DNA from: an uncultured Acidobacteriota bacterium
Lineage (GTDB): Bacteria > Acidobacteriota > Thermoanaerobaculia > UBA5066 > Gp7-AA6
Assembly (NCBI GenBank): GCA_963782815.1
Contig: CAWALG010000032.1
Location: 65,072-129,071 of the forward strand
Reading direction: 5' to 3'
DNA: 64,000 bases
Shown here: positions 16,983 through 53,208 of the stretch, piece by piece
Numbering within the stretch: the stretch's first letter is position 1
Layout: every line of letters begins with the position of its first letter
The notes under the pieces: generated by a model
What the model was told of the DNA's origin: nothing
The model's database searches: none
What the model saw: only the letters and a program-made list of their open reading frames with translations
Program-made: the position numbers and the translations under genes

Positions 16983-18560
16983 TCACCAGGTTACGACTCG
17001 GACGTCCTCGATCGCCGGCGCCCGGCGGAGGCGCTCGAGCGCCTCCCGAGGGGGAACGGAATCCACCGCGATCACCGCGGCCGCCTTCGCGCCGTCTCCG
17101 CGGGCGAGCGCGAACCCCGCGATATTGATCCCCGCCTCGCCGAGCGCGGTCCCGACCGTCCCGACGACGCCGGGCACGTCCTGATTTCGCACGAAGACGA
17201 CCGTGCCCTCGGGATGGAACTCGAGCGGCAGCCCGTCCACCTTGACGACCCGGGCGTCCTTGCCGGAGTAGAGCGTCGCATCCGCGTTCACCGTCGACCC
17301 GGGCCCGGCGACCGTGACGCGGATCGAGCGCACGTAGTTGCCCGGATCCTCATGGCGGGTCATCACGACCGAGAGGCCCCGCTCCTTGGCGACGACGAGC
17401 GCGTTGACGAAGTTGACGGGCTCCGGCACGCGCCCTTCCAGAACGCCCTTCGCCGCGGCGACGCCGACCGGGCGCAGCAGGTCCTCCGGCAGGCCCCACG
17501 TTTCGACCGAGACGGACGTGGCGCCGTCCGCGCCGATCGCCAGGAGGAAGTGGGCGGACCGCTCCGCCAGCCGCATCCAGGCCGCCGCTCCGGACGGGTC
17601 GGCCGGGCCCCGGAACGGAAGGTTCACCGCGGGCACGTAGGTCGCGCCGGCCAGGGCGTCGGCGACCGCCTCGACGGTCTGCAGGGAGACGCGCTCCTGC
17701 GCCTCGACGGTCGAAGCGCCCAGGTGCGGCGTCGCGACGACGTTGGGAAGCTTGAAGAGCGGATCGTTCGGATCGGGCGGCTCGGGATCGAAGACGTCGA
17801 GCGCGGCCCCCGCGAGATGCCCGGAGGCGAGGATGTCGTGGAGGGCTTGCCGGTCCACGAGCTTGCCTCGCCCGACGTTCAAGAGGATCGCGCCCTTCTT
17901 CATGAGCGAAAGCTCTTCCCGGCCGAGGATCGGCTTGCCTCCCGCGGCGACGGTGGCGTGAAGCGTGACGATGTCGGCCGCCTGCAGGAGCTCCGGGAGC
18001 CCCATGAGCTCGACCCCCATCTCCCGGGCGCGGTCGGGCAGCAGGAACGGGTCGTGGCCGATGACCTTCGCCTCGAACGCGCGCGCCCGGGCCGCCACGC
18101 GCGAGCCGACCTGTCCCATGCCGATGATGCCGAGGGTCTTTCCCGAGAGCTCGCTCCCGACGAACTTCGACTTCTCCCACTTCCCCGACGCCATCGAGGA
18201 GGCGGCCGCCGGGACGCGGCGCAGCAGCGAAAAGAGGAGCGCGAACGTGTGCTCGACGGCCGAGACGACGTTCGCGGTCGGAGCGTTGATGACGAGCACG
18301 CCGCGCGCGGTCGCCGCCGGGACGTCCACGTTGTCCACTCCGACCCCGGCGCGGCCGACGACGATGAGCCTGGGGGCCGCGTCGAGGAGGGCCTTGTCCA
18401 CCTTGGTCGCGCTCCGGACGAGGAGCGCGTCCGCGTCCGCGAGCGCCGCGACGAGCTTCTCGCGCGGCGCGCCCCCCAGGTTGACGACCTCGTGCCCCGC
18501 CTCCCTCAGCTTCTGGAGGCCGCTCTCATCCATCTTGTCGGCAACAACAACTTTGCTCAT
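16983..18560 (-). CDS. serA: D-3-phosphoglycerate dehydrogenase
   Basis: Intact 525 aa. NAD motif GIIGMGQVGSRVA, catalytic region, C-terminal ACT domain. Confidence 0.9.
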   Translation of the reverse strand: MSKVVVADKMDESGLQKLREAGHEVVNLGGAPREKLVAALADADALLVRSATKVDKALLDAAPRLIVVGRAGVGVDNVDVPAATARGVLVINAPTANVVSAVEHTFALLFSLLRRVPAAASSMASGKWEKSKFVGSELSGKTLGIIGMGQVGSRVAARARAFEAKVIGHDPFLLPDRAREMGVELMGLPELLQAADIVTLHATVAAGGKPILGREELSLMKKGAILLNVGRGKLVDRQALHDILASGHLAGAALDVFDPEPPDPNDPLFKLPNVVATPHLGASTVEAQERVSLQTVEAVADALAGATYVPAVNLPFRGPADPSGAAAWMRLAERSAHFLLAIGADGATSVSVETWGLPEDLLRPVGVAAAKGVLEGRVPEPVNFVNALVVAKERGLSVVMTRHEDPGNYVRSIRVTVAGPGSTVNADATLYSGKDARVVKVDGLPLEFHPEGTVVFVRNQDVPGVVGTVGTALGEAGINIAGFALARGDGAKAAAVIAVDSVPPREALERLRRAPAIEDVRVVTW

Positions 18561-19243
18561 GCGTGGAAAGGTAAGCTTACAGCCCGCGCCGGCCTAGGTG
18601 CATTCTCATCAATCCAGGCGGGCAACCGCGCCAGGGAATCGAGAAGGGCATCGCGGTCCGCTCCGAGAAGCTCCTCCCGCGTGCGCGAGCCGGACGGCAC
18701 GAGGACGACGCGGCAGCCGGCTGCCCTGGCAAATTCCGAGTCCACTTCCATGTCCCCGACGACGAGCGTGTCGCCGGGCGGCGAGGCGACGGCCGCCATC
18801 AGCCGCCGGAGCATCGTCGGATCGGGCTTGGTCGGCGTCTCGCCGTCCGGCCCGGCGACCGCCCCGAAGAAATGGGCGACGCCGAGCGCCTCGAGGATCA
18901 TCCGCGAGAACCTCTCCGGCTTGTTCGAGGCGACCGCCATCGGATGGCCGCGTTCGGCCAGCTTCGCGAGGACCTCGGGCACGTCCGGCAGCAGGCGCGA
19001 CTTCTCGACGGCCACGGCCGGATAGCGCTCGCGGAAGAGCCGGACTCCTTCGAGAGCCCGCGCCGGGCCGACCGCCTTCCCGAGGAGCCTCTCGATTCCG
19101 TGACCGACCAGGACGCGCACCGCCTCGGGAGGCAGCGGCGGCTCCCCGAGGCGTTCCATCGCGTAGGCGAGCGCGTCTCCGATCGCGTCGTATCCGTCGA
19201 TGAGAGTCCCGTCCAGGTCGAAAACGACGAATGGCTTCGTCAT
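18557..19243 (-). CDS. HAD family hydrolase (phosphoglycolate phosphatase-like)
   Basis: Intact 228 aa. Motif I FDLDGTLID, ASNKP, GDMEVD. 4-nt overlap with serA. Confidence 0.8.
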   Translation of the reverse strand: MTKPFVVFDLDGTLIDGYDAIGDALAYAMERLGEPPLPPEAVRVLVGHGIERLLGKAVGPARALEGVRLFRERYPAVAVEKSRLLPDVPEVLAKLAERGHPMAVASNKPERFSRMILEALGVAHFFGAVAGPDGETPTKPDPTMLRRLMAAVASPPGDTLVVGDMEVDSEFARAAGCRVVLVPSGSRTREELLGADRDALLDSLARLPAWIDENAPRPARAVSLPFHA

Positions 19244-19247
19244 TCGC

Positions 19248-19326
19248 GTGAGGCGTCAGGCGTCAGGCGTCAGGCGAAGCACCGGATTCTCACAACTCGC
19301 CTAACGCCTTACGCCTCACGCCTTAC
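19248..19326. repeat. heptad-repeat hairpin L1: 4 x GTNAGGC, 23-nt spacer, 4 x GCCTNAC
   Basis: gtgaggc gtcaggc gtcaggc gtcaggc ... gcctaac gccttac gcctcac gccttac. The mobB stop codon lies in the third right-arm heptad. Confidence 0.85.
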
Positions 19327-19798
19327 GGCCCCGGTCGAGGCCGGCGAGACGCAAGACGGTGGCGACGATGCCCTGGACGTCGCCGAACGCATGCGTGGGA
19401 AGGTCGTCTTCGGGCGGCTGGTCGGAGACGCGAGCGAGGGCTCCCTCGATCCGCGGGCGGGCGGCCCGCGCCCGTGTCACCTCGATCTTGGGCATCGGGA
19501 GGAACTTGAACCCCTCGACCAGGACGAGATCGCAGTCGGCGAAGTCGCGCGCGAGGAGGTCGTCGAGCCGCTCCTCCTGTCCGAACCTCCGGGCGGTCTC
19601 CCGCGCCGGCGTGACGAAGGCGGAGACCGCGGCGCCCGAAGTCGCGTGCAGGTGCGAGTCCTTGCCCGCCACGTCGTCCTCGGCGTCCTTGGAGCTGTGC
19701 TTGATCGTGCCGACCCGGAGGCCTCTCGCGGTCAGCCAGGGAACGAGCTCCACGATCAGCGTCGTCTTTCCCGATTCGTGGCCGCCGACGAAGGCCAC
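19316..19798 (-). CDS. mobB: molybdopterin-guanine dinucleotide biosynthesis protein B
   Basis: 160-aa ORF. Walker A GGHESGKTT, VLVEGFK. N-terminus uncertain. Confidence 0.75.
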   Translation of the reverse strand: MAFVGGHESGKTTLIVELVPWLTARGLRVGTIKHSSKDAEDDVAGKDSHLHATSGAAVSAFVTPARETARRFGQEERLDDLLARDFADCDLVLVEGFKFLPMPKIEVTRARAARPRIEGALARVSDQPPEDDLPTHAFGDVQGIVATVLRLAGLDRGRKA

Positions 19799-21041
19799 CG
19801 GCGGCCGGCTTGTGGTCCGGATAGAGCAGATGCGGCTCGCGCCGCGGGAGAAACTCCCTCGCTCCCGCGTCGTGCCTGGCGATCTCCGGAGTCAGGTCGT
19901 CTCCCCTTTCGACGAGCTCGCGGTACCGGGGCGAGCCCGTCAGGAGGTCGATCGCCGGCCGCGGGTCGAACTCGTACGGCTCGGTCCGCCAGCGAAAGCG
20001 GTCCCGGTCGAGCCGGCGCGCGGTTTCGATCACTCTCATTCCGGTCTCGAAGGACCGAAAGCCGCGCCGGTGGACGGCCGCTCCCGGCCGCGGCGAAGGA
20101 TGCCGGCCGAAGCGCTGCTCGCGCCCCGTCACGTGCATCATCGCGCCGCCGACGGTCTGTCCCGCGTGCTTGTCGAACATCGGCCGGAAGTGAACGGGCA
20201 CGAACGACACTCCCGGGAGCTCGAGCGCGTTGAGCTCGCCGGTGAACGCGACCGCGTCCAGCCAGGGCGCGCCGAAGATTTCGAAGGGGCGCGTCGTGCC
20301 CCTCCCCTCCGAAAGGTTCGTTCCTTCGAGAAGACACATCCCCGGGTAGACGAGAGCCGTCCCCGGCGAGGGGATGTTGGGCGAAGGCGAGACCCAGGGG
20401 AGCCCCGTCGCGGCAAAGTCCATGTCCCGGGCCCAGCCGGACATCGCGCAGACGGCGACGTCCACGTCCAGGTTCTTTTCCGACGCGAGCAATCGCGCCA
20501 TCTCGCCGGCCGTCATCCCGTGGCGGACCGGCACCGGGTGCATCCCGACGAACGAGAGGTACTCCTCCTCCTGGGGCGCGCCTTCGGTCTCCCCCCCGAT
20601 CGGGTTCGGACGATCGCAGACGACGAGCCTCTTTCCCGACTCGGCGCACGCCTCCATCGCCAGCATCATCGTCCAGATGTACGTGTAGTAACGGGCGCCG
20701 ACGTCCGCGACGTCGAAGACGAGGGCGTCCAGGTCCGCCAGGTCCTCGCGGCGGGGCTTCAGGGATTCGCGTGTCGCGCCGTAGAGCGAGACCGACGGAA
20801 TGCCGGTCGGAGCGTGGATCGAGTTGCCGACCGCCTCCATGTAGACCGCTCCCCCGTCCACGCCGTGCTCGGGGCCGAAGAGGCGAACGAGCCGCGCGTC
20901 CTTCAATTGCGCGAGGGCCTTCCAGCCCGGCACTCCCTCGGACGTGACGCCCGAAGGGTTCGTGATGAGACCGAAGCGCTTTCCCGCGATCGGCGACGGG
21001 TCGGCCAGGAGGTGATCGATTCCGCAGAGGACTCTTCTCAC
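19799..21041 (-). CDS. DUF1343 domain protein (NamZ-like family); 3' end unresolved
   Basis: In-frame part of ORF 19323..21863: GLITNPSGV, RLFGPEHG, DVGARYYTYIWTM, CDRPNPIGG. The GTG start overlaps the moaB stop (GTGA). No in-frame stop before mobB. Confidence 0.7.
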
Positions 21042-21541
21042 GGCTTGCCCGGGTGCGCGGCCGCCTCGCCGCGCACGAGAGCGATCGCGTGAGGGAGCAG
21101 GTCCACGATCGCGCGCAGGCAGTCGGCCGCGCCTCGCGGGGATCCGGGGAGCGCGAGGACGAGGGTCTGGTCCCGCACTCCCGCGACCTGCCGCGAAAGG
21201 TAGGCCGCCGGGAAGTCCCTCCCCGTGTCGGAGCGCATCTTCTCGGCCAGGCCGGGGATCTCGAACTCGACGGCCTCCCGCACGGCCTCGGGGGTCCGGT
21301 CCCTCGGCGCCACGCCCGTGCCTCCCGTCAGGACGATCAGGTCGGCGTGGCGCGAGTAGGCCGTCATCCGGATGGCGCGCGCGATCAGCTGCCGGTCGTC
21401 CGGCAGGATCTCCCGCGAGACGATCTCGTGGACGATGCCCGACGCGCGGAGCGCCTCCTCGCAGGCGGGCCCCCCGCCATCCTCGCGCCGACCGGCCGCG
21501 ACGCCGTCGGAGACCGTCATGATCACGACCCGGATCGTCAT
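21038..21541 (-). CDS. moaB: molybdenum cofactor biosynthesis protein B (MoaB/MogA fold)
   Basis: MTIRVVIMTVSDG.., LIVLTGGTGVAPRD, LALPGSPRG. It is the C-terminal part of ORF 21038..22222. Confidence 0.8.
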   Translation of the reverse strand: MTIRVVIMTVSDGVAAGRREDGGGPACEEALRASGIVHEIVSREILPDDRQLIARAIRMTAYSRHADLIVLTGGTGVAPRDRTPEAVREAVEFEIPGLAEKMRSDTGRDFPAAYLSRQVAGVRDQTLVLALPGSPRGAADCLRAIVDLLPHAIALVRGEAAAHPGKP

Positions 21542-22080
21542 GAGAGCTGGCGCCTGTAGGTCCCGGAGCGCCCGCCGGTCTTCTCGAGCAGGACGATCTC
21601 GCGGATCTCGATCGAGCGGTCGAGCGACTTGGCCATGTCGTAGAGCGCCAGGCAGGCGCCGGCGACCGCGGTGAGCGCCTCCATCTCGACGCCGGTGCGC
21701 GCGGCCGTCGAGGCGGTCGCGGTGACGATGACCTCGCGGCTCCTCGCGGCGAGCTCGCACTCGACCGAGACCGCGTCGAGGGCGACCGGATGAGCGAGCG
21801 GCACGATCTCGGAAGTCTTCTTGGCCGCGAGAATCCCGGCCAGCCGCGCGACGGCGAGGGCATCTCCCTTCGACAGCTTCCCCTGGGCGAGCGCGCCGAA
21901 TGCCGCCTCGTTCAAGCGCACCCTTCCTCGAGCCACGGCGCGCCGGCGCGTGGATGCCTTGGCGCCGACGTCCACCATTCGCGCGCGTCCGCGCGAATCC
22001 AGATGCAGCAGGCTCCCCCGCAGCGGGCCCGTCGAGCGGGGCCGCCGCGGCTGCTTGGGCGGTCTTCCTTCTTCCGTCAT
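21538..22080 (-). CDS. moaC: cyclic pyranopterin monophosphate synthase MoaC
   Basis: MVDVGAK, KGDALAVARLAGI, KKTSEIVPLAHP, TGVEMEALTAV. Start set at MTEEG (ATG 22080), overlapping the mobA stop. Confidence 0.85.
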   Translation of the reverse strand: MTEEGRPPKQPRRPRSTGPLRGSLLHLDSRGRARMVDVGAKASTRRRAVARGRVRLNEAAFGALAQGKLSKGDALAVARLAGILAAKKTSEIVPLAHPVALDAVSVECELAARSREVIVTATASTAARTGVEMEALTAVAGACLALYDMAKSLDRSIEIREIVLLEKTGGRSGTYRRQLS

Positions 22081-22668
22081 GCGCGCTCCCGCGCCGTGTT
22101 GTATTGCTCGATCGTGTTGACGTTGGCGAAAGAGTTGCCCGAAGGGTCGGCCGCCCGCCACGCCTCTTCAGAAAGAATCTCCGCTCCGACCTCTTGCGCG
22201 AGTCCGTAGAACGACAGCTCACCCCGGGCGATCCGCGCGAGCGCGACGGGGAGAACGCTCTTGCGCCAGACAGCGGCCAGAGGCTGGAGAAGCCCGTCGG
22301 CGAGGGGGATTACGGCCGGCCCCTCCGATTCGAGGCTCGCCTCGCGCGATGGCCCGGATGACCTCTTCCGACAGCAACGGCAGGTCCACGGCGAGAACGA
22401 AGAGCCGGTCGGATGCCTCCTCGAGCGCCCGCGCGAGGCCGTGGATCGGAGCCTGGTCGGCGGTCCGGTCGAGCACGAGGCGCGCCGGCCCGGCGTCGAA
22501 GCCCGGCGCTTCCTTGGCCACGACGAGGACCTCTTCGAAGATCCGCGAAAGCCTCTCCGTCTGATGCGCGAGCAGCGTCGTCCTGCCGTAAGGGAGCGAG
22601 GCCTTCGGCACGCCCATCCGCCGCGAGCCGCCGCCCGCCAGGACCGCCGCCGGCATCGCGATTCTCAT
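22077..22668 (-). CDS. mobA: molybdenum cofactor guanylyltransferase (one frame change)
   Basis: AAVLAGGGSRRMG.PKA, LVLDRTADQAPIHGL. After a shift near 22340: LQPLAAVWRKSVL...NTIEQYNTARERA*. Confidence 0.75.
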
Positions 22669-22698
22669 TGGGACGACGATGCTAGCATCGCCGCTCAC

Positions 22699-23368
22699 TT
22701 GATCTCGCTGATTATCCCGGTCCGGAACGAGACTCCGGAGGCGGCCGAGCGATTCCGCCCCTTCCTCGTTCGCGGACAAACCGAGATCGTCGTGGCGGAC
22801 GGCGGGGGGCGTCCCGAGACCTCCCGCGCCTTCGAGGCGATCGGAGCGGGCATCTCCCGCGGCGAGGGGAGCCGGGGCCTGCGCCTGGACCGAGCCGCGC
22901 GGCAGGCCCGGGGCGAGATCCTCTTCTTCGTCCACGCGGACTCGCGGCCGCCTGAAAACGCGCTGTCCGCCATCCGCGATTGCCTCGAATCCGGCGCCGT
23001 GGCGGGAGCGTTCTCGCTCGCTTACGAGAACGCGACCCCGGCCCTTCGATGGATCGCATGGTGGGCGAACCTGCGTTCGCGGCTGTTCGCGTCTCCCCTT
23101 CGGCGACCAGGGTCTCTTCTGCCGGCGCGACGCCTACGAGCGCTCCGGCGGCTATCGCGACCTCGCGATCTGCGACGACGTCGACATCGTGCGGCGCTTG
23201 AAGCGCGCCGGCCCGTTCCGGGTCCTCCCCGAGAAGACCGTTACGTCGCCGCGCCGCTACCGGGAGCGCGGCGCCCTCCGCCAGGTGCTGAGAAATTGGA
23301 AGGTCCTGTTGGGCTACTTCGCGGGGGTTTCCTCCGAGAAGCTCGAGCGCTGGTACAACCAGAGGTAA
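22699..23368 (+). CDS. family-2 glycosyltransferase, TIGR04283-like (one frame change)
   Basis: ISLIIPVRNE, EIVVADGGG, ILFFVHADSRPP. After a shift near 23095: PFGDQGLFCRR...RRYRERGALRQ...WYNQR*. Confidence 0.65.
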
Positions 23369-23525
23369 CAGGTGTCAGGGAAAAGGTATCAGGTGAACTG
23401 CAGGTGTCAGGTATCAGGTGTCAGGTTGCGAAGTGACGAAAGCCCTGTTCGGGCTCTGGTCCCTGAAACCTGATACCCGGCACCTGAAACCTGCATTTCC
23501 CCTGACACTCAACCTGACACCTGAT
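23369..23525. repeat. heptad-based inverted repeat L2 (degenerate CAGGTNT arms) between convergent genes
   Basis: Left arm includes caggtgt caggtat caggtgt caggttg (23401-23428). Right arm is acctgat/acctgaa/acctgac units (23461-23525). About 35-nt centre. Confidence 0.75.
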
Positions 23526-23533
23526 CCCCCGGC

Positions 23534-24377
23534 TTACTTCCCTTCCCCTCCCAGGATGATCGGCAGGCCGGACTTCTGGTTTCCGATCACGACCACCTTC
23601 GTGTTCTGCGAGAGGGCGAGCTTCTCGGTCGCCTCGATTCCCTTCCACTCGAGCAACTGCTGGCTGATCCCGGAGGCGACGATCCTCTGGAAATCGGCCA
23701 CGCCCTGCGCCTCGATGCGCTTGCGTCTCGGCCTCCTGCGACTCCTTCTGCAGCACGAACTTCATCTGCTCGGCCTCCTGTTCGCGGCGCAGCTTCTCCT
23801 GGATGGCGTTGGCCACGACCGCCGGAAGGCCGATCTTCCGCAGGAGGATCGCCTCGGTGATGATTCCGCGCCCCTCCGACATCTTGCGGAAGAGCTCGAG
23901 GGTTTCGCGGGAAATCTTGTCGCGCTCGGCCGAGTAGAGCACCTTGGCCTCGTAGGTCGCGGTGATCTCGCGGATGGCGGAACGGACCTGCGGGACGACC
24001 GCGATCTCCTGGTAGTTGGGCCCGATCGTCTTGTAGATCTCGGCCGCCTTGGTCGGATCCAGGCGGTAGAGCAGAGAGCCTTCCAGGTCCATCGTGAGCC
24101 CCTCCTTGGAGGGGACCTCCGCCGTCTCCTTGACCTCCTGCGTCTTGATCGACATGTTCACGACCCGCGTGAACGGGAAGACGACCCGGACGCCCGGCCC
24201 CAGGACGCTGGAAGAGACGTTTCCGAAGAAATCCTTGACCCCGACGTGTCCGGCCGGGATGACCCTGACGGGATTGCCGAGAAGAATCAGGAGAACGACC
24301 GCGACGACGATGGCGAGGCCTCGCAGGCTCCGGCCGCCTCCGGGCGTACCGCTGACGTCGATGAGACGTGGTGACAT
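23534..24377 (-). CDS. SPFH/band 7 (prohibitin-like) membrane protein (one frame change)
   Basis: N-terminal TM (LAIVVAVVLLILL) and SPFH core. After a shift near 23745: RIEAQGVADFQRIVASGISQQLLEWKGIEAT...GLPIILGGEGK*. Confidence 0.75.
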
Positions 24378-24466
24378 GGCTCCTCCTTGTTGTTAAGAGA
24401 TGTCGGTGCTCAGTCTATGGCGAGGCGGGAGGGCAGGCAGTGAAGGAAGCGTTCGGTCGTCCCTAG

Positions 24467-24498
24467 ATCACAAATCACCAATCGCAAATCACAAATCG
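24467..24498. repeat. tandem heptad repeat L3 (ATCACAA x ~4.5)
   Basis: atcacaa atcacca atcgcaa atcacaa atcg, beginning 4 nt downstream of the ribBA stop (minus-strand sense). Confidence 0.8.
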
Positions 24499-24501
24499 TC
24501 T

Positions 24502-25720
24502 TCACACCATCTTCAACAGGTGTCCCATCTTGTTCTTCTTGGTTTCCAGGTACTTGCGGGAGCGGTCCGTGGGGTCGATCTCGAGAGCGACGCGCTCGAC
24601 GATCTCCAGCCCGTAGCCGCCGATCGCGACGTACTTGGAGGGATTGTTGGTCATCAGGCGCATCTTGCGGACTCCGAGATCGCGCAGGATCTGACACCCG
24701 ACCCCGTAGTTGCGGATGTCGGGCGGAAAGCCGAGCTTCTCGTTGGCCGAGACGGTGTCGTGGCCTTCGTCCTGGAGCTCGTACGCCTTCAACTTGTTGA
24801 AGAGGCCGATCCCGCGCCCTTCCTGGAGCAGGTAGAGGAAGACGCCGCGCCCCGCCTCGACGATCTTCTCCATCGCCCGGGCGAGCTGCTCGCCGCAGTC
24901 GCACCGGGCGGAGCCGAAGATGTCCCCCGTGAGGCATTGGGAGTGGACGCGCACGAGCACCGGCTCGTCTTCGCGGATCTCGCCGTGGACCAGCGCGATG
25001 TGCTCCTCGTTCGTGACGTCGCTCCTGTACGCGAAGACGCGGAAGTCTCCGAAGCGCGTCGGCAGGTGGGGCGACGCGATCCTCTGGACGAGGCGTTCCG
25101 TCTTCATCCGGTGGCCGATCAGGTCGGCGACCGTGACCATCGCGAGACCGTGCTTCGCGCAGAACCTCGTCAGGTCCGGCACGCGCGCCATCGTGCCGTC
25201 CTCGTTCATCACCTCGCAGAGGACGGCCGACGGGTCGAGTCCCGCGATCCGGGCGAGGTCCACCGACGCCTCGGTCTGTCCGGCGCGCTTCAGGACGCCT
25301 CCCGGGGCGGCTCGCAGCGGAAACATGTGCCCCGGCCGCAGCAGGTCCGAGGGCTTCGTCGCCGGATCGATCGCCGTCAGGACGGTCGCCGCGCGGTCGG
25401 CGGCGGAGATGCCGGTCGTCGTGCGCCCGCGCGCCTCGATCGAGACCGTGAACGCCGTGCCGAAGTTCGAGGTGTTCTCTTCCACCATCGGAGGAAGCTC
25501 GAGCTGCGCGGCATCGCTCCTCGGTGAGCGCGAGGCAGATCAGGCCCCGCCCCTCCCGCGCCATGAAGTTGATCGCCTCCGGAGTCGTCATCTGCGCCGC
25601 GAGGACCAGGTCCCCTTCGTTCTCCCGGTCCTCGTCGTCCACCACGACGACGAAGCGCCCGGCCTTCATCTCCTCGACCGCCCGGTCGATCCCGACGAAG
25701 GGTTCTTTCGTCTCACTCAT
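24502..25720 (-). CDS. ribBA: bifunctional 3,4-dihydroxy-2-butanone-4-phosphate synthase / GTP cyclohydrolase II (one frame change)
   Basis: N-half [16 protein letters not shown]-half [24 protein letters not shown]. Shift near 25500. Confidence 0.9.
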
Positions 25721-25780
25721 CTGGTCTATATTCGCACACGGGACCTCCGCAGGCAGGAGTTTTGCTTATAGACTGCACGA

Positions 25781-28342
25781 ATGCGCGCACGCGCTCGGAC
25801 GCTTCGTGTTTCCCGCGGCCCTTCTGCTCCTCGGAGCATCCAGGCCCCTGATCCTCGCGCACCGATCGCCCCAGGAGGCCCAGGAGAACGCGGCCGCCGC
25901 GCGCCGGCCGCGCCCTACGACTGGCTCCAGATGAACGGAGACCCTCAGCACAGCGGGAACAACACGCGGGAGACGGTGCTCGGGCCTTCCAACGTGACGC
26001 AGCTCACCTTCCTCTTCCAGGCCACGCTCCCCTCCGCCGCGGACGGGGCGCCCGTATTGCTTTCCGGGGTGACGACCGTGAACGGCACGCAGGACCTCCT
26101 CTTCATCACGACGAAGGCGGGCCTCCTTCTCGCCCTGGACGCGTCCACCGGTGCCCAGGTCTGGTCGCGGCCGCACACCGGGACGGGTAACACGAACTCC
26201 TCTCCGGCCATCGATCCCAACCGCCTCTTCGTGTACAGCTACGGCCTGGACGGGTATGCCCACAAGCACCAGGTCGGAGACGGCACGGAGATCACGACGG
26301 GCGGCTGGCCGGAGCTGACGACGCTCAAGGGGGGTGTCGAGAAGCTCGCCCCGGCACTCGCGATCGCGACCGCCGGCAACGGAGCGACCTACCTCTACGT
26401 GGCCCACGGCGGATACATCGGTGACGGCGGCGACTACCAGGGGCACGTGACGGCCATCAACCTGGCGACCGGAACGCAGAAGGTCTTCAACTCCCTCTGC
26501 AGCGACCAGGCGGTCCACTTCGTCCAGTCGCCGGGAACTCCCGATTGCGCGAGCAAGCGGTCGGCCATCTGGGCCAAGGACGGCGTGATCTACGACGACG
26601 TGACCGACCGGATCTACATGGCGACGGGAAACGGTCCCTTCGACGCCAACGTCGGCGGGCGCAACTGGGGCGACAGCATCTTCGCGCTGGCGCCGGACGG
26701 CTCGGGGGCGAACGGGAACCCGCTGGACAGTTACACGCCGATCAACTACGCGTCGCTCGAGGGCGGGGACGTCGATCTCGGCAGCACGGGCCCCGCGATC
26801 CTGCCGGCCCCCGGCTACTCCGGGCGCCTGGCGGCGCAGTCGGGCAAGGACTCCGCGCTGCGACTGATCGAACTGACCAACATGAGCGGCCAGGGGGGTC
26901 CGGGGCACGTGGGGGGTCAGCTCCAGCTCCTCTCCCTCCCGCAGGGGGGCCCCGTCCTGACGGTACCGGCGGTCTGGGTCAATCCGGGCGACGGCAGCAC
27001 GTGGGTCTTCGTGACCAACGGGTCCGGCAGCTCGGCCTACAAGCTGACGTTTCCCTCGGGCTCGCCCGCGCTCGCGCTGCAGTGGAACAACACGATCGGC
27101 CGTTCCTCCCCGCTCGTGGCCAACAACGTCCTTTACATCACCGGCAACGGGACGATTCGCGCCCTCAATCCCACGACGGGGGCGGTCCTCTGGAGCGATG
27201 CGACGAAGGTGGGCAGCCTCCACTGGCAGAGCCCCGTCGTCGCCAACGGCAGGCTTTACATGATGGACGAGTCCGCTCACCTGACCGCTTACGGGCTGCC
27301 GCCAGCCGGAACGCCGACGCAAACATCCACGAACACGCCGACGAATACCCCCACCGGCACGAACACGCTGACCAACACCCGGACGAACACACCCACCTCC
27401 ACGCCGACGAACGTCAGCACCGCTGCGCCGACGAACACGCCGACGCGGACCCCGACGAACACGCCGACGCGGACCCCGACGAACACGCCAACGCGGACCC
27501 CGACGAACACGCCGACGCCGACGTCGACGACCAGCACGGGGACGCCGACGAGCTCGCCGACGCGGACCCCGACGCAGACGCCGACTCGGACCCCGACGAA
27601 CACGCGGACAAATACTCCGATCCCTGTTCTCACGAACACCCCGACCAACACGCCCACGGTGACGCCCACGCCGACGCCGGCGGGCGTGATCGTTCCTCCG
27701 CTGACCGATTTCCGCGACGTCCGTCGGGCGGCCGACATCAATGTCGGAACCGACCTGGGAGGCACCGGGCATCCGGCGATCAACTTCACCGGATCGGCCG
27801 GGTCGGGAGGAGACGCCTGGATCACCGTCTACGACGCGACCCCCGGCACGCCAGACGAGGACCCGGTCTTTGGAAGCGTGAACCTCTCCGCGGATGTCCT
27901 GATCCAGACCTACAACAACAAGAAGGGGGCCGGCCTGCTGGCGCTCTTCAACGAAGGGACCGGCCAGAAGGGGCTGTCGCTGATCCTCTACGACAGCGGA
28001 AACTCCGACAGCCTGGCTCTCGTTGTGGTCGACCCGGCGACCGGACGATTCACGGCATTGACGAGCGTTTCGCTCGGCGGGAACATCGTGGAGAACGCGT
28101 GGTATCGCCTGACGGTGAACGTCGCCATCAGCGGCGCCAACGTCGCGGTGACGGGAAAGGTCTTCCGGCACACGGTCGCGACGGACCCCAACAGCCCGAC
28201 GGGCACGCAGGTGGGCGTGACACTGAATTTCAACGGGGCCCGGCCCGCCGGCGTCGACGCGGCCGGCGAGGTCGGCCTCGTGGCCGGGGCCGCCAGCACC
28301 TCCGTCAACTCCAGCGTCACGAACTTCACGATCAACCCGTAA
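25781..28342 (+). CDS. secreted PQQ-like beta-propeller protein, Pro/Thr linker, C-terminal jelly-roll-like domain (paralogue 1)
   Basis: 853-aa ORF with propeller repeats ([28 protein letters not shown]). (PTNTPTRT)n linker and a ~210-aa C-domain. The signal peptide reads best in another frame ([14 protein letters not shown]), so N-terminal indels are likely. Confidence 0.75.
27300..27680 (+). repeat. coding Pro/Thr linker with 24-nt tandem units
   Basis: ccgacgaacacgccgacgcggacc repeated about 3.5 times at ~27428-27515, inside a longer ACN-CCG rich tract. In frame with paralogue 1. Confidence 0.8.
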
Positions 28343-28349
28343 CGGCGGG

Positions 28350-30904
28350 ATGACTCCTCCTGTGCGCCGGCGGTTCCTTTCCCTCGGGATGGCCGTCGGC
28401 GCCGGTCTTGGCCTGGCCCTCATCCCGGCCAACCGTTCGCCCCTGTCGGGGCAAGGGGCCGGGCGCGCGGGGACCGCTCCCGCCGCGGCACCGGCCGCGC
28501 CCTACGACTGGCTCCAGATGAACGGGGACCCGCAGCACAGCGGGAACAACACGCAGGAAACGGTCCTTGGCCCCGGCAACGTCGCGAGCCTCCAGTTCCT
28601 GTTCCAGGTCGCGCTGCCGTCCGCCGCCGACGGGGCTCCTGTCGCCCTGTCCTCGGTCCTGACGCCGGGCGGCACCTTCGACCTTCTGTTCTCGACGACG
28701 AAGACGGGCACTCTCGTCGCCCTGGATGCGGCGACCGGAGCCCAGATCTGGGCCCAGCCGCACGCCGGAGCGTCGAGCGTCACGAACTCCTCTCCGGCGA
28801 TCGATCCCAATCGGCTCTACGTCTACAGCTACGGGCTCGACGGCAAGGCTCACAAGCACCTGGTGGGAGACGGCGCCGAGATCACGACCGGGGGATGGCC
28901 GCAGCTGGCGACGTTGAAGGGAAACGTCGAAAAGGTCGCCGGGGCCCTCTCCACCGCGACGGCGGGGAACGGCGAGCGCTACCTCTACGTGCCCCACGGC
29001 GGATACAACGGCGACGGGGGCGATTACCAGGGGCACGTGACCGCGATCAACCTGACGACCGGGACGCAGAACATCTTCAACATGTTGTGCAGCGACCAGT
29101 TCGTGCACTTCACCAGTTCGGTTCCCGATTGCGGCTCTCGGCGGGCGGCGATCTGGCCCAAGGACGGGATCCTCTACGACGCCGCGACCGACCGGATCTA
29201 CATGCCGACGGGCAACGGGCCCTTCGACGCCAACGCCGGCGGCCACAACTGGGGAGACAGCGTCCTCGCGCTCAATCCCGACGGCACCGGCAGCGGCGGC
29301 GGCATGCCGGTGGACAGCTACACGCCGTCCAACTACGCCGCGCTCGAAAGCGGCGACCTGGACCTGGGATCGACCGGGCCCGCGATTCTCCCGGCCGCGG
29401 GCTACCCGGGGCGCCTCGCCGTCCAGTCGGGCAAGGACTCGAAGCTGCGCCTGATCGACCTGACCGACATGAGCGGGCAGGGCGGGCCGGGACACGCCGG
29501 AGGCGAGATCGAGCTCCAGTCGCTCCCCCAGGGTGGAGGCGTCCTCACGGTTCCGGCGGTCTGGATCAATCCCGCCGACGTCACCACCTGGGTCTTCTAC
29601 TCGAACAACTCCGGCCTCTCCGCGCTGAGGCTCGAGTTTCCCGGAGGCGTGCCCTCGCTCGTCAAGCAGTGGCAGAGCTCGCTCAACGGAACATCGCCGC
29701 TCGTGGCCAACAACGTGCTCTACCAGATGGGCGGCTTCACTCTTCGCGCCATGGATCCCTTGACGGGCAGCGTGCTCTGGAGCGACACGACCCATGTCGG
29801 GAGCAGGCACTGGCAGAGTCCCGTCGTCTTCAACGCCCGGGTCTACCTGCAGGACGAGGCGGGGCACATGACCGCGTGGGGTCTGCCTCCCGACACCGGC
29901 ACTCCGACCGCGACCCCTCCGAGCACGGCGACGAATACGCCCACGAACACCCGGACCAGCACGCGGACGGCCACACCGACGAGGACTCCGACCAACACCC
30001 GGACCGCCACGCCGACGAGGACGGCGACGAGGACGCCGACAGTCACGCCGACCAGAACGCCGACGAGGACACCGACGGTCACGCCGACCAGAACGCCGAC
30101 GAGACACCGACGGCGACTCCAGCCACTCCGACCGGCACGCCGTCTCCGGCGGCGACCGGCGCGCCGACGAACACCGCGACGGATACGCCGACGCAAGGGC
30201 CGATCACCACTCCGACGCCGACGCCCACGCCGGGCGGCGTCGCTGCCATCGCCTTCGTCAAGAATGTCGGCACCGCGTCTCACTCGACCGGGTTCTTCAC
30301 GAGCCTCCAGGTCTCGGTTCCGGCAGCCGGAGTGGCTTCGGGCGAGAGCCTGATCATCTCGATCTTCGCGGGCAGCTCGACCGGGACTTTTCTCTGCTCC
30401 GATCCCAGGGGCAACGTCTATGCCCAGGATGTGGCGTCCGGCGGCGGCGGCGTTCCCAGGGCCGCGATCGTTTCGGCCCACAACGTGGCTGCCCTGCTGT
30501 CCGGCGACACGATCACGTGCACATTTCCCACGACGAGCACCGGGAGCGCAATGAGCGTCAACGAGTTCTCCGGGCTCCTGGCCGCTCCGCTGGATGGCAC
30601 GGCCTCGGCCAGCGGCACCAACAACTCCCCCAACAGCGGGCTGACTCCCGCGACGGTCCAGAACAACGAGCTGGTCTTCGGCTTCGTGCACTCCGTCTCA
30701 TTCGTCCCCGCCACGACCGGAAGCAACCCGGCCGAGACCTACGCGAGCCCGCCCAACTCCGATCCGTACCACTTCGCCGGCCAGTCCGGCAGCGTGTGGC
30801 CGGTGTATCGGATCGTGAGCACGAACCGCCAGTACCAGGCCAACGGCACAGGCGGCGGCACGGGCGGCTGGCGCGCGATGGCCGCGACCTACAAGGGCCA
30901 GTAA
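28350..30904 (+). CDS. Tat-signal PQQ-like beta-propeller protein, Pro/Thr linker, different C-terminal domain (paralogue 2, one frame change)
   Basis: Twin-arginine signal VRRRFLSLGMAVGAG. The propeller is collinear with paralogue 1. Shift near 30103 at the end of the linker. C-domain is in ORF 28895..30904 (GVAAIAFVKNVG...ATYKGQ). Confidence 0.75.
29885..30235 (+). repeat. coding Pro/Thr linker repeats of paralogue 2
   Basis: acgccgaccagaacgccgacgaggacaccgacggtc-type units (PTRTPTRTPTVT). The single-base deletion (gagg to gag) sits at ~30103. Confidence 0.75.
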
Positions 30905-36606: not shown

Positions 36607-36641
36607 GACCTTAGACCTTAGACCTTAGACCTTCGACGCCT
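36607..36641. repeat. tandem heptad repeat L4 (GACCTTA x 3 plus 2 degenerate units)
   Basis: gacctta gacctta gacctta gaccttc gacgcct, between the thiolase stop (36646) and the FadJ-type start (36596). Confidence 0.85.
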
Positions 36642-36645
36642 TCGT

Positions 36646-37926
36646 TCACATCTGCTCCAGCACGATCGCGCCGCCCTGCCCGCCGCCGATGCACATCGTG
36701 GCGAGGCCGAACTGCGTGCCGCGGCGGCGCATCTCCCTGGCGAGCGTCGTCACGAGCCGGGTCCCCGAGGAGCCCACGGGATGCCCGAGCGCGATCGCGC
36801 CTCCGTTGACGTTGGTCCTGTCCCAGTCGATCTCGCCGATGGGGCCGCCGGTGGCGTACTTCGCGTGCCAGGCCGCGGACGGGAAGACGCGCGCGTTGGC
36901 CAGCACCTGGGCGGCGAAGGCCTCGTTGATCTCGACGAGACCGACGTCCTTCCATTCGATCCCCGCCTTCTTCAAGGCGAGCGGCGTCGCGACCGCCGGG
37001 CCGAGGCCCATGCGCTCGGGCTCCAGCGCGCAGAACGCGAAGCCGCGGATCTTCGCGAGCGGCTTGTACCCGTTGGCCTTCGCCGCCGCGGCGCTCATGA
37101 CGAGCGTGGCCGCGCCCCCGTCGGTGATCTGCGAGGAATTGCCCGCCGTCACGGTCCCGAATCTCCGGTCGAAGAAGGGGCGCAGCTTCGCGAGCGCCTC
37201 GAGCGTCTGGTTCTCGCGCACGCCGTTGTCCCGGACGGACATCGCCTTGTAGTCCGGGGGGATCGGCACCGGCACGATCTCCTCGGCGAGCCTTTCCCGC
37301 GCCATCGTCACCCGCTGATGCGAGCGCAGCGCGAAGGCGTCCTGCTCTTCCCGGCCGATGCCGTGCTCCTTGGCGAGGATCTCCGCCGTCTCCCCCATGT
37401 TCAGACCGCACACAGCGTCGGTCAATCCCATCTGCAGGCCGATGTCCGGCTTGAAGTGCTTCGGCCGGAACTTCGCCGCGGCCGCGATCTTCCCGCCCGT
37501 GGCCCTCGCGGTGAAGACCTCGGTGAAGACCTCCTGGCTCTCCTTCGAGTAGAGGAGCGGGATGTTCGACATGGACTCGACGCCCCCCGCGACGATCGCG
37601 TCGGCGTCCCCCGCCGCGATCCGGTAAGCGGCCTCGACGATCGCCTCGAGCCCCGACCCGCAGAGGCGGTTGACCGTGAAGGCCGGAACGCTCGCCGGGA
37701 CCCCCGCCAGGAGCGCCGCGACCCGCGCGACGTTGACCGCGTCGGGAGGCTGCGCGATGTTGCCGAAGATGACCTGGTCGAGCCGCGCGGGATCGAACGC
37801 GGTGCGAGCCAGCACCTCGACCGTGACGATGCGGCCCAGCTCCTGAGCGGGGACGTCCTTCAGCTCGGTGTTCGCCTTCGCGTACGGCGTCCGCACGCCG
37901 TCCACGACGACGACATCACGCGACAT
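36646..37926 (-). CDS. acetyl-CoA C-acyltransferase (thiolase)
   Basis: Intact 426 aa. NRLCGSGLEA active-site Cys, C-terminal CIGGGQGGA. Confidence 0.9.
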   Translation of the reverse strand: MSRDVVVVDGVRTPYAKANTELKDVPAQELGRIVTVEVLARTAFDPARLDQVIFGNIAQPPDAVNVARVAALLAGVPASVPAFTVNRLCGSGLEAIVEAAYRIAAGDADAIVAGGVESMSNIPLLYSKESQEVFTEVFTARATGGKIAAAAKFRPKHFKPDIGLQMGLTDAVCGLNMGETAEILAKEHGIGREEQDAFALRSHQRVTMARERLAEEIVPVPIPPDYKAMSVRDNGVRENQTLEALAKLRPFFDRRFGTVTAGNSSQITDGGAATLVMSAAAAKANGYKPLAKIRGFAFCALEPERMGLGPAVATPLALKKAGIEWKDVGLVEINEAFAAQVLANARVFPSAAWHAKYATGGPIGEIDWDRTNVNGGAIALGHPVGSSGTRLVTTLAREMRRRGTQFGLATMCIGGGQGGAIVLEQM

Positions 37927-52560: not shown

Positions 52561-53037
52561 TCAATTCGGCGGGGCCGAGCCCTGACGCGAGGAGCGAAGC
52601 CGGGCCGCCGGCCGCGACGCCGCGACCAGCTTGCGCAGAATGGAAGAATCCGCCGGACGTGTCTCCTGAACCGAGGTCAGAATGTCGCTCAAGGACAGGA
52701 TTCCCACGAGCCTTCCGTCGCCGTCCACGACCGGCAGTCGCCGGATGTGCCCGTCCGCCATGACGCTCAACGCGTAGGTGAGATCGGTTCCCGGACCGCA
52801 GGTGAAGGGGTTCAGGGTCATGACCTCCCGCACGGGGATCGCCGCGGGAAACCGGTTCTTATGGGCCACGGCCAGGCAGACGTCTCGATCCGTGAGGATC
52901 CCGACGGGCCGGCCGGCGTTGTCGAGGACGGGAAGCGCTCCACAACCGTATTCCTGCATGGCCAGCGCGGCCGCCGCCAGGCTCGCGTCCGGCGTGCACG
53001 AATGGGCGGGAGAAGTCATCGCGTCTTGAACTCTCAT
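52561..53037 (-). CDS. CBS-pair domain protein
   Basis: MRVQDAMTSPAHSC.., ALPVLDNAGRPVGILTDRDVCL, IRRLPVVDGDGRLVGILSLSDIL. Start at ATG 53037 within ORF 52561..53325. Confidence 0.8.
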   Translation of the reverse strand: MRVQDAMTSPAHSCTPDASLAAAALAMQEYGCGALPVLDNAGRPVGILTDRDVCLAVAHKNRFPAAIPVREVMTLNPFTCGPGTDLTYALSVMADGHIRRLPVVDGDGRLVGILSLSDILTSVQETRPADSSILRKLVAASRPAARLRSSRQGSAPPN

Positions 53038-53136: not shown

Positions 53137-53208
53137 GTCGAGAGTCAAGGGTCGAGAGTTCAGAGTTGAGCCCCCGGTTCTCTCGACTCTCGACTCTCGA
53201 CTCTCGAC
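53137..53208. repeat. heptad-repeat hairpin L5: 5 degenerate GTCGAGA units, short loop, 4 x TCTCGAC
   Basis: gtcgaga gtcaagg gtcgaga gttcaga gttgagc ccccggttc tctcgac x4, downstream of the acyl-CoA synthetase stop. Confidence 0.85.

Follow-up and report, generated by a model that had tools for sequence, protein, structure and literature searches.

The hairpin described here lies in the genome (69% G+C) of an uncultured Thermoanaerobaculia bacterium (Acidobacteriota), of which we analyzed one 64-kb stretch of DNA, hereafter called the window. The gene order on the minus strand is MobB, hairpin, HAD-family hydrolase, and SerA, with the end of the HAD gene overlapping serA (16983 to 18560). The original prediction had placed the hairpin between mobB and the HAD gene, and this placement is borne out, both genes being Pfam-supported and on the minus strand. 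It had also described positions 19248 to 19326 as four GTNAGGC units, a 23-nt loop, and four GCCTNAC units in which a single position varies, a description that direct reading found correct to the base. On the plus strand, 19248 to 19275 reads gtgaggc, gtcaggc, gtcaggc, gtcaggc and 19299 to 19326 reads gcctaac, gccttac, gcctcac, gccttac, the variable position being the third of the unit in one arm and its mirror, the fifth, in the other. An inverted-repeat search recovered the arms as 19247 to 19277 and 19297 to 19327 (31 nt, 87% complementary).

We refer to this hairpin as locus 1. Each unit of its 5′ arm contains TAA, TGA, or TAG, and the TGA stop codon of mobB itself (19316 to 19318) lies inside that arm. 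Four nucleotides separate the end of the 3′ arm from the HAD ATG (19241 to 19243), and no Shine-Dalgarno motif was found between the arm and this start codon. The organism does use Shine-Dalgarno sites, since AAGGAGG stands upstream of its Band_7 gene, in contrast to HAD.

Four further loci had been predicted to share the same design, each directly after a stop codon. All five loci (Table 1) do have a constant 7-nt period and a different unit each, but hairpins are present only at loci 1, 2, and 5. The inverted-repeat search found arms at locus 2 (23386 to 23427 and 23467 to 23508) and locus 5 (53137 to 53165 and 53180 to 53208) and none at 24467 or 36607. A stop codon directly precedes four of the loci, at a distance of 0 to 9 nt, but not locus 5, which lies about 41 to 45 nt after one. 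TRF reported period-7 arrays at 19246 to 19276, 19298 to 19327, 23363 to 23426, 23462 to 23493, 24467 to 24497, 36607 to 36637, and 53180 to 53208, and its copy numbers for these seven arms (4.1 to 8.6) agree with direct reading.

TABLE 1 Heptad-repeat arms in the window and the genes flanking locus 1 (units of loci 1, 3, 4, and 5 in mRNA sense)
Feature	Positions	Strand	Units or remarks	Basis
mobB (PF03205)	19316 to 19798	-	Last codons and stop within locus 1 5′ arm	Pfam
Locus 1, 5′ arm	19299 to 19326	-	GTAAGGC, GTGAGGC, GTAAGGC, GTTAGGC	Sequence reading, TRF, folding
Locus 1, loop	19276 to 19298	-	23 nt; homologous to loop of orthologous L031 hairpin	
Locus 1, 3′ arm	19248 to 19275	-	GCCTGAC x3 and GCCTCAC	Sequence reading, folding
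HAD-family hydrolase gene	18557 to 19243	-	Immediately downstream of locus 1 hairpin	Pfam
Locus 2, first arm	23363 to 23429	+	About nine units, CAGGTNN	TRF, reading, inverted-repeat search
Locus 2, second arm	23462 to 23525	+	ACCTGNN units	TRF, reading, inverted-repeat search
Locus 3	24467 to 24497	-	Direct array only, TTGTGAT-type units x4.4	TRF, reading
Locus 4	36607 to 36641	-	Direct array only, TAAGGTC x4	TRF, reading
Locus 5, 5′ arm	53180 to 53208	-	GTCGAGA x4, perfect array	TRF, reading
Locus 5, 3′ arm	53137 to 53170	-	Degenerate units complementary to 5′ arm	

As the original prediction had it, the five loci are intergenic: they lie between Pfam-supported genes and outside reading frames, except for the last mobB codons. 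The genes flanking loci 1, 3, 4, and 5 are all on the minus strand (Pfam). Locus 2 is set between a GT2 glycosyltransferase gene on the plus strand, whose TAA stop (23366 to 23368) falls within the first unit, and the convergent Band_7 gene on the minus strand, whose real stop, allowing for a frameshift, is at 23534 to 23536, 8 nt from the end of the second arm. The locus 3 array begins about 5 nt past the ribBA stop (24502 to 24504), with the Band_7 start at 24377 downstream. Locus 4 occupies a 49-nt spacer between a thiolase stop (36646 to 36648) and a fadB-like start (36596), and locus 5 is flanked by an ATP-grasp gene, which stops at 53253, and a CBS-domain gene, which starts at 53019. Among relatives, L045 has an array beside a start codon, in a spacer between divergent genes.

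Period-7 arrays in the window and among relatives

We compared the number of arrays in the window with 60 second-order Markov simulations, counting arrays of at least three copies with at least 80% identity at the lag under an identical criterion for every period. Six period-7 arrays were observed against 0.58 +/- 0.86 simulated (maximum 3), an approximately 10-fold excess in this 64-kb window; one of the six is a G+C-rich run within a gene. Among arrays of at least four copies, period 7 accounts for five, period 4 for two, period 6 for one, and the other periods from 5 to 10 for none. Period 7 thus predominates over other periods in the window, and it does so in the loci of relatives as well. 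No further degenerate period-7 arrays were found in the window, nor any lag-7 autocorrelation in its remaining non-coding DNA, and none of the five units recurs elsewhere in the window or among the loci fetched from relatives. A candidate recurrence, CGTAAGC x2 at 14575 in L001, was rejected as a coincidence in coding sequence. CRISPR arrays, iterons, and protein-coding repeats were dismissed on the grounds that the 7-nt units are contiguous, without spacers, and outside reading frames. Two neighboring plus-strand genes for PQQ-like beta-propellers (25931 to 28342 and 28362 to 30353) contain long arrays of period 12, 24, and 36, at 27306 to 27680 and 29929 to 30232 (for example, CCGACGAACACGCCGACGCGGACC x7.7); these arrays are presumably repetitive linker regions, unrelated to the heptads.

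Relatives were found through a SerA scan of species-representative genomes (Thermoanaerobaculia with conserved gene order), a MobB metagenome scan, and look-ups of thiolase homologues; a look-up for exact matches to the HAD protein of the window, which might have revealed strain variants, gave no record. In the close clade, which comprises the window, L001, L015, L031 to L039, and L043 to L047, there are 41 period-7 arrays in 193 kb (21 per 100 kb), compared with 0.5 to 3.6 arrays per 100 kb for periods 5, 6, and 8. Other Thermoanaerobaculia have five period-7 arrays in 362 kb (1.4 per 100 kb), all of them G+C-rich single arms, and the outgroups have none in 161 kb. Even close relatives can lack an element, as L015 and L012 do at locus 1 and L048 does at locus 4. 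Given that these relatives do without it, any function must be dispensable.

Compared with intact L045 and L015 orthologues, ribBA (25503 to 25505), Band_7 (23691 to 23722), and GT2 (23090 to 23100) each carry a single frame change in the window. These changes, all within 2.5 kb, are either long-read assembly indel errors or real pseudogenes. Because three neighboring genes are frameshifted, the exact copy numbers of the arrays need checking against reads, and the frameshifts, in that they suggest indel errors, also speak for the arrays themselves being an artefact of long-read metagenome assembly or sequencing. Homologous arrays, however, were found at corresponding spacers in more than 15 assemblies that are independent of one another, produced by different projects with different assemblers and including short-read k141/k127 and JGI contigs. 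Since the arrays recur in this way, we conclude that they are not an artefact; that explanation has next to no probability and is effectively refuted, and read-level inspection could alter exact copy numbers only. With respect to mobB, a called product in L045 (12901 to 13623) joins NamZ_N/NamZ_C and MobB domains in 512 amino acids, and the stretch upstream of mobB in the window (19798 to 21000) gave no Pfam match in the frame tried. It may be that mobB in the window is the last part of a longer fused gene, or that there is a frameshift upstream of it too.

Folding and orthologous spacers

The elements consist of three to nine copies of a locus-specific 7-nt unit, usually followed by an inverted array, which together give an imperfect stem-loop of 25 to 60 bp in the transcript or in a single strand of DNA. 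We identify them, with high confidence, as heptanucleotide simple-sequence repeats, mostly in inverted pairs. Folding separated the five loci of the window: loci 1, 2, and 5 form stable stem-loops, but the folds of loci 3 and 4 are no better than those of shuffled sequences. At locus 1, the RNA fold reaches -54 kcal/mol (z -6.6; 0 of 200 shuffles as good) and the DNA fold -28 kcal/mol (z -6.5), and the stem is a series of 6-bp helices with a 1x1 mismatch at the variable base between them. Several element families share this pattern of 6-bp helices with a 1x1 mismatch every 7 nt. For the whole spacer at locus 2, the fold energy is -95 kcal/mol on the plus strand and -110 kcal/mol on the minus strand, the locus 5 hairpin folds at -52 kcal/mol (z -4.6), and z ranges from -4.6 to -11.5 for window hairpins other than locus 1. 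In relatives, 7 of the 10 hairpins tested have z values of -4.5 to -8.1. The sense fold is more stable than the antisense fold in only 9 of 13 cases, a count that does not decide between RNA and DNA.

The original prediction had set these hairpins apart from simple terminators, and we agree. No T/U tract follows any hairpin (the tails are GCGAATG at locus 1 and CCCCCGG at locus 2), and a scan of 17000 to 26000, around loci 1 to 3, for sigma-70 promoter and intrinsic-terminator consensus sequences returned no site at the hairpins. Since the U tract is missing, they are not canonical terminators, and we rejected an assignment to intrinsic (Rho-independent) terminators, which combine a G+C-rich stem with a T/U run. 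A search against Rfam 15 yielded no match at the gathering score, and a permissive scan gave only chance-level hits (E >= 0.29); the window arrays thus match no curated RNA family there.

The spacer between mobB and the HAD gene contains a heptad hairpin in 10 loci, or 11 with the single arm of L038. In transcript sense, the 5′ and 3′ units are CGTNAGG and CCTNACG in the window, L031, and L036; CGTNAGC and GCTNACG in L032 to L035, with L038 having the 5′ arm only; and CGTNAAA and TTTNACG in L001, L037, and L039. Hairpins with different unit alleles have related loops; CGAAGCTCCG, for example, starts the loop in both L032 and L039. In a hand-built alignment of these related sequences, with three basal units per arm and an artificial loop, 95% of cells were paired and six pairs had changes on both sides (23 cells). 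None of 500 shuffles reached the observed values, and slid controls paired 18 to 47% of cells. That the opposite arm has followed exactly through at least three unit states is direct evidence for base pairing, and not sequence, being kept. The comparison of sequences thus indicates that the stem is kept while the unit sequence drifts between relatives. Among the papers on heptanucleotide repeats that we consulted, we found no report of such concerted compensatory change of both arms.

The base N of this family, within T-N-A, is a purine in 43 of 45 5′-arm units and never C (manual count), and in the 3′ arm it is mostly G. Because of this, the N positions of the two arms oppose each other as purine-purine mismatches, and TAA or TGA appears on the transcript strand in either arm. 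In arrays between co-directional genes generally, we counted 102 stop codons in the sense direction versus 40 in the antisense direction, and closure of all three frames was seen in 20 of 34 arms for sense and in 6 for antisense. This asymmetry is driven mainly by the mobB-HAD family and the direct arrays and is not universal. Accordingly, a stop codon in every unit was rejected as a universal rule, locus 5 and the TTCCAGG hairpins of L001 having few or none. Also rejected was the 5′ arm as a source of Shine-Dalgarno-like AAGG or GAGG for HAD, the GC and AA unit alleles lacking these motifs. The transcript-strand bias of N suggests a role at the level of RNA or translation, and for this reason we favor RNA stem-loops at gene junctions and ends.

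Two other spacers also hold different units in different relatives. Between ribBA and Band_7 (locus 3), full hairpins are found in L015 (ATTGTGA/TCACAAT) and L045 (ATTGAAG/CTTCAAT), and the window retains one arm only, of the L015 type; between L015 and L045, this is a second case of two arms that have changed in concert. Between the thiolase gene and fadB, L043 to L047 have AGTTNTC/GANAACT hairpins with one mismatch per 7 nt, and the window has the direct TAAGGTC x4 array. Since loci 3 and 4 and, at locus 1, L038 are single-armed, arrays can persist without a stem.

Copy number was also compared in related strains, and whole-unit changes were seen in the mobB-HAD spacer. There are three to six units per arm among L032 to L035, genomes whose mobB DNA is 89 to 94% identical, and arm length differs by one to three units at this level of identity. 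Four strains at 99.9% identity have identical arrays, which means that the arrays are not hypermutable switches at that scale. Two such 99.9% identical strains do differ elsewhere, in the spacer between an acyl-CoA dehydrogenase gene and ribBA (L045 7643 to 7990 versus L046 7643 to 8199), by a 209-bp insertion or duplication. This spacer holds a palindromic element with the ends TGTCATCCCGAG...CTCGGGATGACAG and a 54-bp tandem duplication, a kind of repeat distinct from the heptads.

The main rival to a functional stem is that the elements are functionless by-products, neutral or selfish, of a bias toward 7-nt slippage that stems from some property of replication or repair in this lineage. Fold-back or template-switch synthesis would then make and correct the inverted arm, such that complementarity is mechanistic (quasi-palindrome correction), and arrays would survive only in spacers, where they are harmless. 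A constant period with an arbitrary unit sequence is what such a process would leave, and it is consistent with arrays that are restricted to one sub-lineage, are patchy and dispensable even among close relatives, and persist as single arms. Polymerase slippage is also the mechanism that has been proposed for heptamers (Mrazek 2007, as summarized in PMC4679880 and PMC4692102). However, templating should homogenize N, whereas nearly all units keep a purine-purine mismatch at N alongside covariation at the six remaining positions, and a symmetric DNA process does not predict a purine bias on the transcript strand. Nor is turnover fast, given the identical arrays of the four 99.9% identical strains. 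We regard this explanation as possible but doubtful. Because complementarity is maintained alongside a persistently mismatched N, selection on the stem fits better than arm-to-arm templating.

Copies in other spacers

Some elements occur more than once. L001 has two copies of a whole TTCCAGG/CTGGAAT hairpin, 2 kb apart, which share their loop and the order of their unit variants. In one case, about 80 nt has been inserted between the MoaC and MoaB genes, which abut in relatives. L045 has the AGTTNTC unit in two places, and L038 has it too. From the duplicate hairpin and the several AGTTNTC sites, we conclude that elements can be copied to new spacers. L001 also has no Band_7 gene between ribBA and GT2 (L001 3739 to 6830), where every other relative has one, and its TTCCAGG hairpin copies flank a 2-kb GT2-MobA-MoaC block, which suggests that recombination between such elements can remodel this region.

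These copies raise the alternative that the elements are small non-autonomous mobile elements, similar to REP/BIME or MITE sequences and inserted by, for example, a RAYT-type transposase encoded elsewhere, with the periodicity as a feature of the family. The near-identical pair in L001, with its clean insertion between abutting genes, would be explained in this way, as would the repeated use of AGTTNTC in L045 and L038 and the unrelated units that the same spacers hold in different relatives. Against this, the five window units are unrelated and none recurs in the 64 kb or in the fetched loci, the sequences examined, by eye, showed neither a target-site duplication nor a terminal inverted repeat other than the arms themselves, and the mobB-HAD element is vertically homologous, with shared loops, and was not re-inserted. 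We therefore consider a mobile origin unlikely.

REP and BIME elements of enterobacteria occupy transcribed spacers within operons and between convergent genes, form stable stem-loops that lack a U tract, and vary in presence between relatives. The heptad elements are like them in position, in their stem-loops without a U tract, and in their patchy presence. REPs, however, are single imperfect palindromes of 20 to 40 nt with one family consensus and a RAYT transposase, and they are without the internal 7-nt periodicity seen here. Moreover, no single recurrent consensus was found: units differ by locus in the window, and within the window and the fetched loci, only L001 and L045 have two copies each of an element. 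The distinction from REP elements that was drawn in the original prediction therefore stands, and we rejected this class.

Relation to known repeats and possible roles

The elements had been thought to belong to no described class, and here we differ, since intergenic heptanucleotide repeats, inverted pairs included, are on record in cyanobacteria, Xanthomonas, Geobacter, and Beggiatoaceae. Heptanucleotide repeats are over-represented in bacterial intergenic DNA (Mrazek, Guo & Shah 2007, as cited in PMC4692102 and PMC4679880), and tandem heptanucleotides were described in the cyanobacterium Calothrix (Mazel et al. 1990, as cited in PMC4692102). Heptamers of Nostoc with reporter effects are the subject of a preprint (bioRxiv 10.1101/2022.06.06.494920). 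The arrays that we studied share with the heptanucleotide simple-sequence repeat class (Mrazek 2007; STRR) a 7-nt unit in three to nine tandem copies, a non-coding location, an excess over other periods, a lineage-specific distribution, and unit-wise length variation between relatives, and they resemble cyanobacterial heptamers in having several unit types per genome. They differ from the class in occurring in another phylum, at 69% G+C, mostly paired with an inverted array and with compensatory change from arm to arm. We found no description of heptad arrays in Acidobacteria in the literature. This is thus a known but unexplained kind of repeat, now in Acidobacteriota, with a useful comparative signal.

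The closest likeness to the paired arms is in Xanthomonas, where about 185 GGGAATC arrays have been described, 70 to 75 of them as convergent inverted pairs capable of forming stem-loops (Rehm et al. 2015, PMC4692102). These, too, are intergenic heptamer arrays of a high-G+C genome, and loci 1, 2, and 5 are inverted pairs of this type. Their sites are mostly conserved between species while differing in length and sequence, and the single or inverted-pair type is usually kept, which we count as a further likeness. However, the Xanthomonas unit is one G-rich, genome-wide unit with G-quadruplex potential, whereas ours are locus-specific and mostly A+T-richer, and the five unrelated units of the window contain no run of three or more G. 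Tandem heptanucleotides, four or five at a time, also make up families in Geobacter metallireducens, where certain multicopy repeat families are mostly paired (Aklujkar et al. 2009, PMC2700814); the heptanucleotide families are similar in copy number and in forming multi-copy families, and were annotated as putative regulatory elements, a role assigned there without a test. Those families each have a fixed consensus (GGACCGG, MTYCTGA) in tens of copies, some in genes, in contrast to the locus-specific, intergenic units here.

TAACTGA arrays are found in Beggiatoaceae, cyanobacteria, and Bacteroidetes (MacGregor 2015, PMC4679880). Like our elements, they have two to six copies in spacers, often overlap the upstream stop codon, carry stops in three frames, and precede genes without a Shine-Dalgarno site. 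In contrast to ours, they have a fixed unit, are nearly all direct (with one inverted case), and are oriented toward the downstream start, and the window units (GTNAGGC, CAGGTNN, TTGTGAT, TAAGGTC, and GTCGAGA) are unrelated to theirs. On the other strand, AGTTNTC reads NAACTGA, which is one base from TAACTGA and carries TGA and often TAA. It is present in L043 (4244 to 4275), L044 (11322 to 11352), L045 (3664 to 3694 and 10973 to 10996), and L038 (781 to 804), and in L043 to L045, it forms one arm of a hairpin. The resemblance may be a coincidence or may reflect a shared constraint.

A constant 7-nt step could also mean that the arrays are a binding platform for a protein with that step, either a cold-shock-domain or S1-like RNA binder, with one unit per domain, or a DNA-binding regulator, a role that has been proposed for the TAACTGA arrays (PMC4679880) and for the Geobacter families (PMC2700814). 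CspB has been reported to bind heptamer repeats with one protein per heptamer (PMC4679880), and the arrays directly upstream of starts in L045 (10973 to 10996) and L001 (9969 to 9995) would suit such a protein, as would the likeness of the NAACTGA units in L043 to L045 to TAACTGA. Yet the unit sequences differ completely between the loci of one genome and between orthologous loci, and because of this a sequence-specific reader is ruled out. In addition, most arrays are locked in stable stems, whereas proteins of this kind bind single strands. Overall, we judge a binding platform to be very unlikely.

As to function, which we infer, we consider it most likely, with moderate confidence, that these elements are slippage-generated heptad hairpins that act as RNA stem-loops in transcripts. 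Replication slippage in a 7-nt register would create and resize the arrays, which fits because they change by whole units; whole elements would occasionally be copied into new spacers; and selection would keep the stem for an RNA stem-loop role in a polycistronic or 3′-terminal transcript. The stem might serve as a barrier to 3′ exonucleases, as a weak terminator without a U tract, or as a modulator of translation at gene junctions. Given that the stem of locus 1 encloses the mobB stop and ends 4 nt before a HAD start without a Shine-Dalgarno site, we propose that translational coupling may occur there, whereby a ribosome terminating on mobB would melt the base of the stem and expose the HAD start. 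Where the units carry stop codons, all three frames would be closed at any copy number, because the period of 7 is not divisible by 3.

A more far-reaching possibility, which we rate as decidedly unlikely, is that, in this sub-lineage of the Thermoanaerobaculia, stem-loops with a 7-nt period are written into spacers and maintained there by a dedicated process that is indifferent to their sequence. Such a process would keep six of the seven positions complementary and leave one per unit mismatched, and candidates for it would be an activity of replication or repair that is specific to this register, or a protein that recognizes the structure of 6-bp helices with single-mismatch spacing. If this were true, the stems, far from being passive repeats, would exert post-transcriptional control across the genome, through translational coupling and frame-proof termination.

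An excess of heptanucleotides in bacterial spacers has been known since 2007, and heptanucleotide repeats in cyanobacteria since 1990. This lineage offers an unusually clean comparative handle on such repeats, the same spacer being occupied in many uncultured relatives. The mismatched, purine-biased base that creates stops on the transcript strand is a second clue, and it points to the level of RNA or translation. Through covariation and this purine-biased mismatch, an unspecific "repeat of unknown function" becomes experimentally addressable.

These arrays also bear on annotation, as gene ends and starts in such genomes can fall within them. In the mobB-HAD spacer of L038 (4234 to 4275), which has the 5′ arm only (five units), the HAD frame apparently starts at a GTG in the array. 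Given this start, an upstream gene can end and the following gene begin within a single array.
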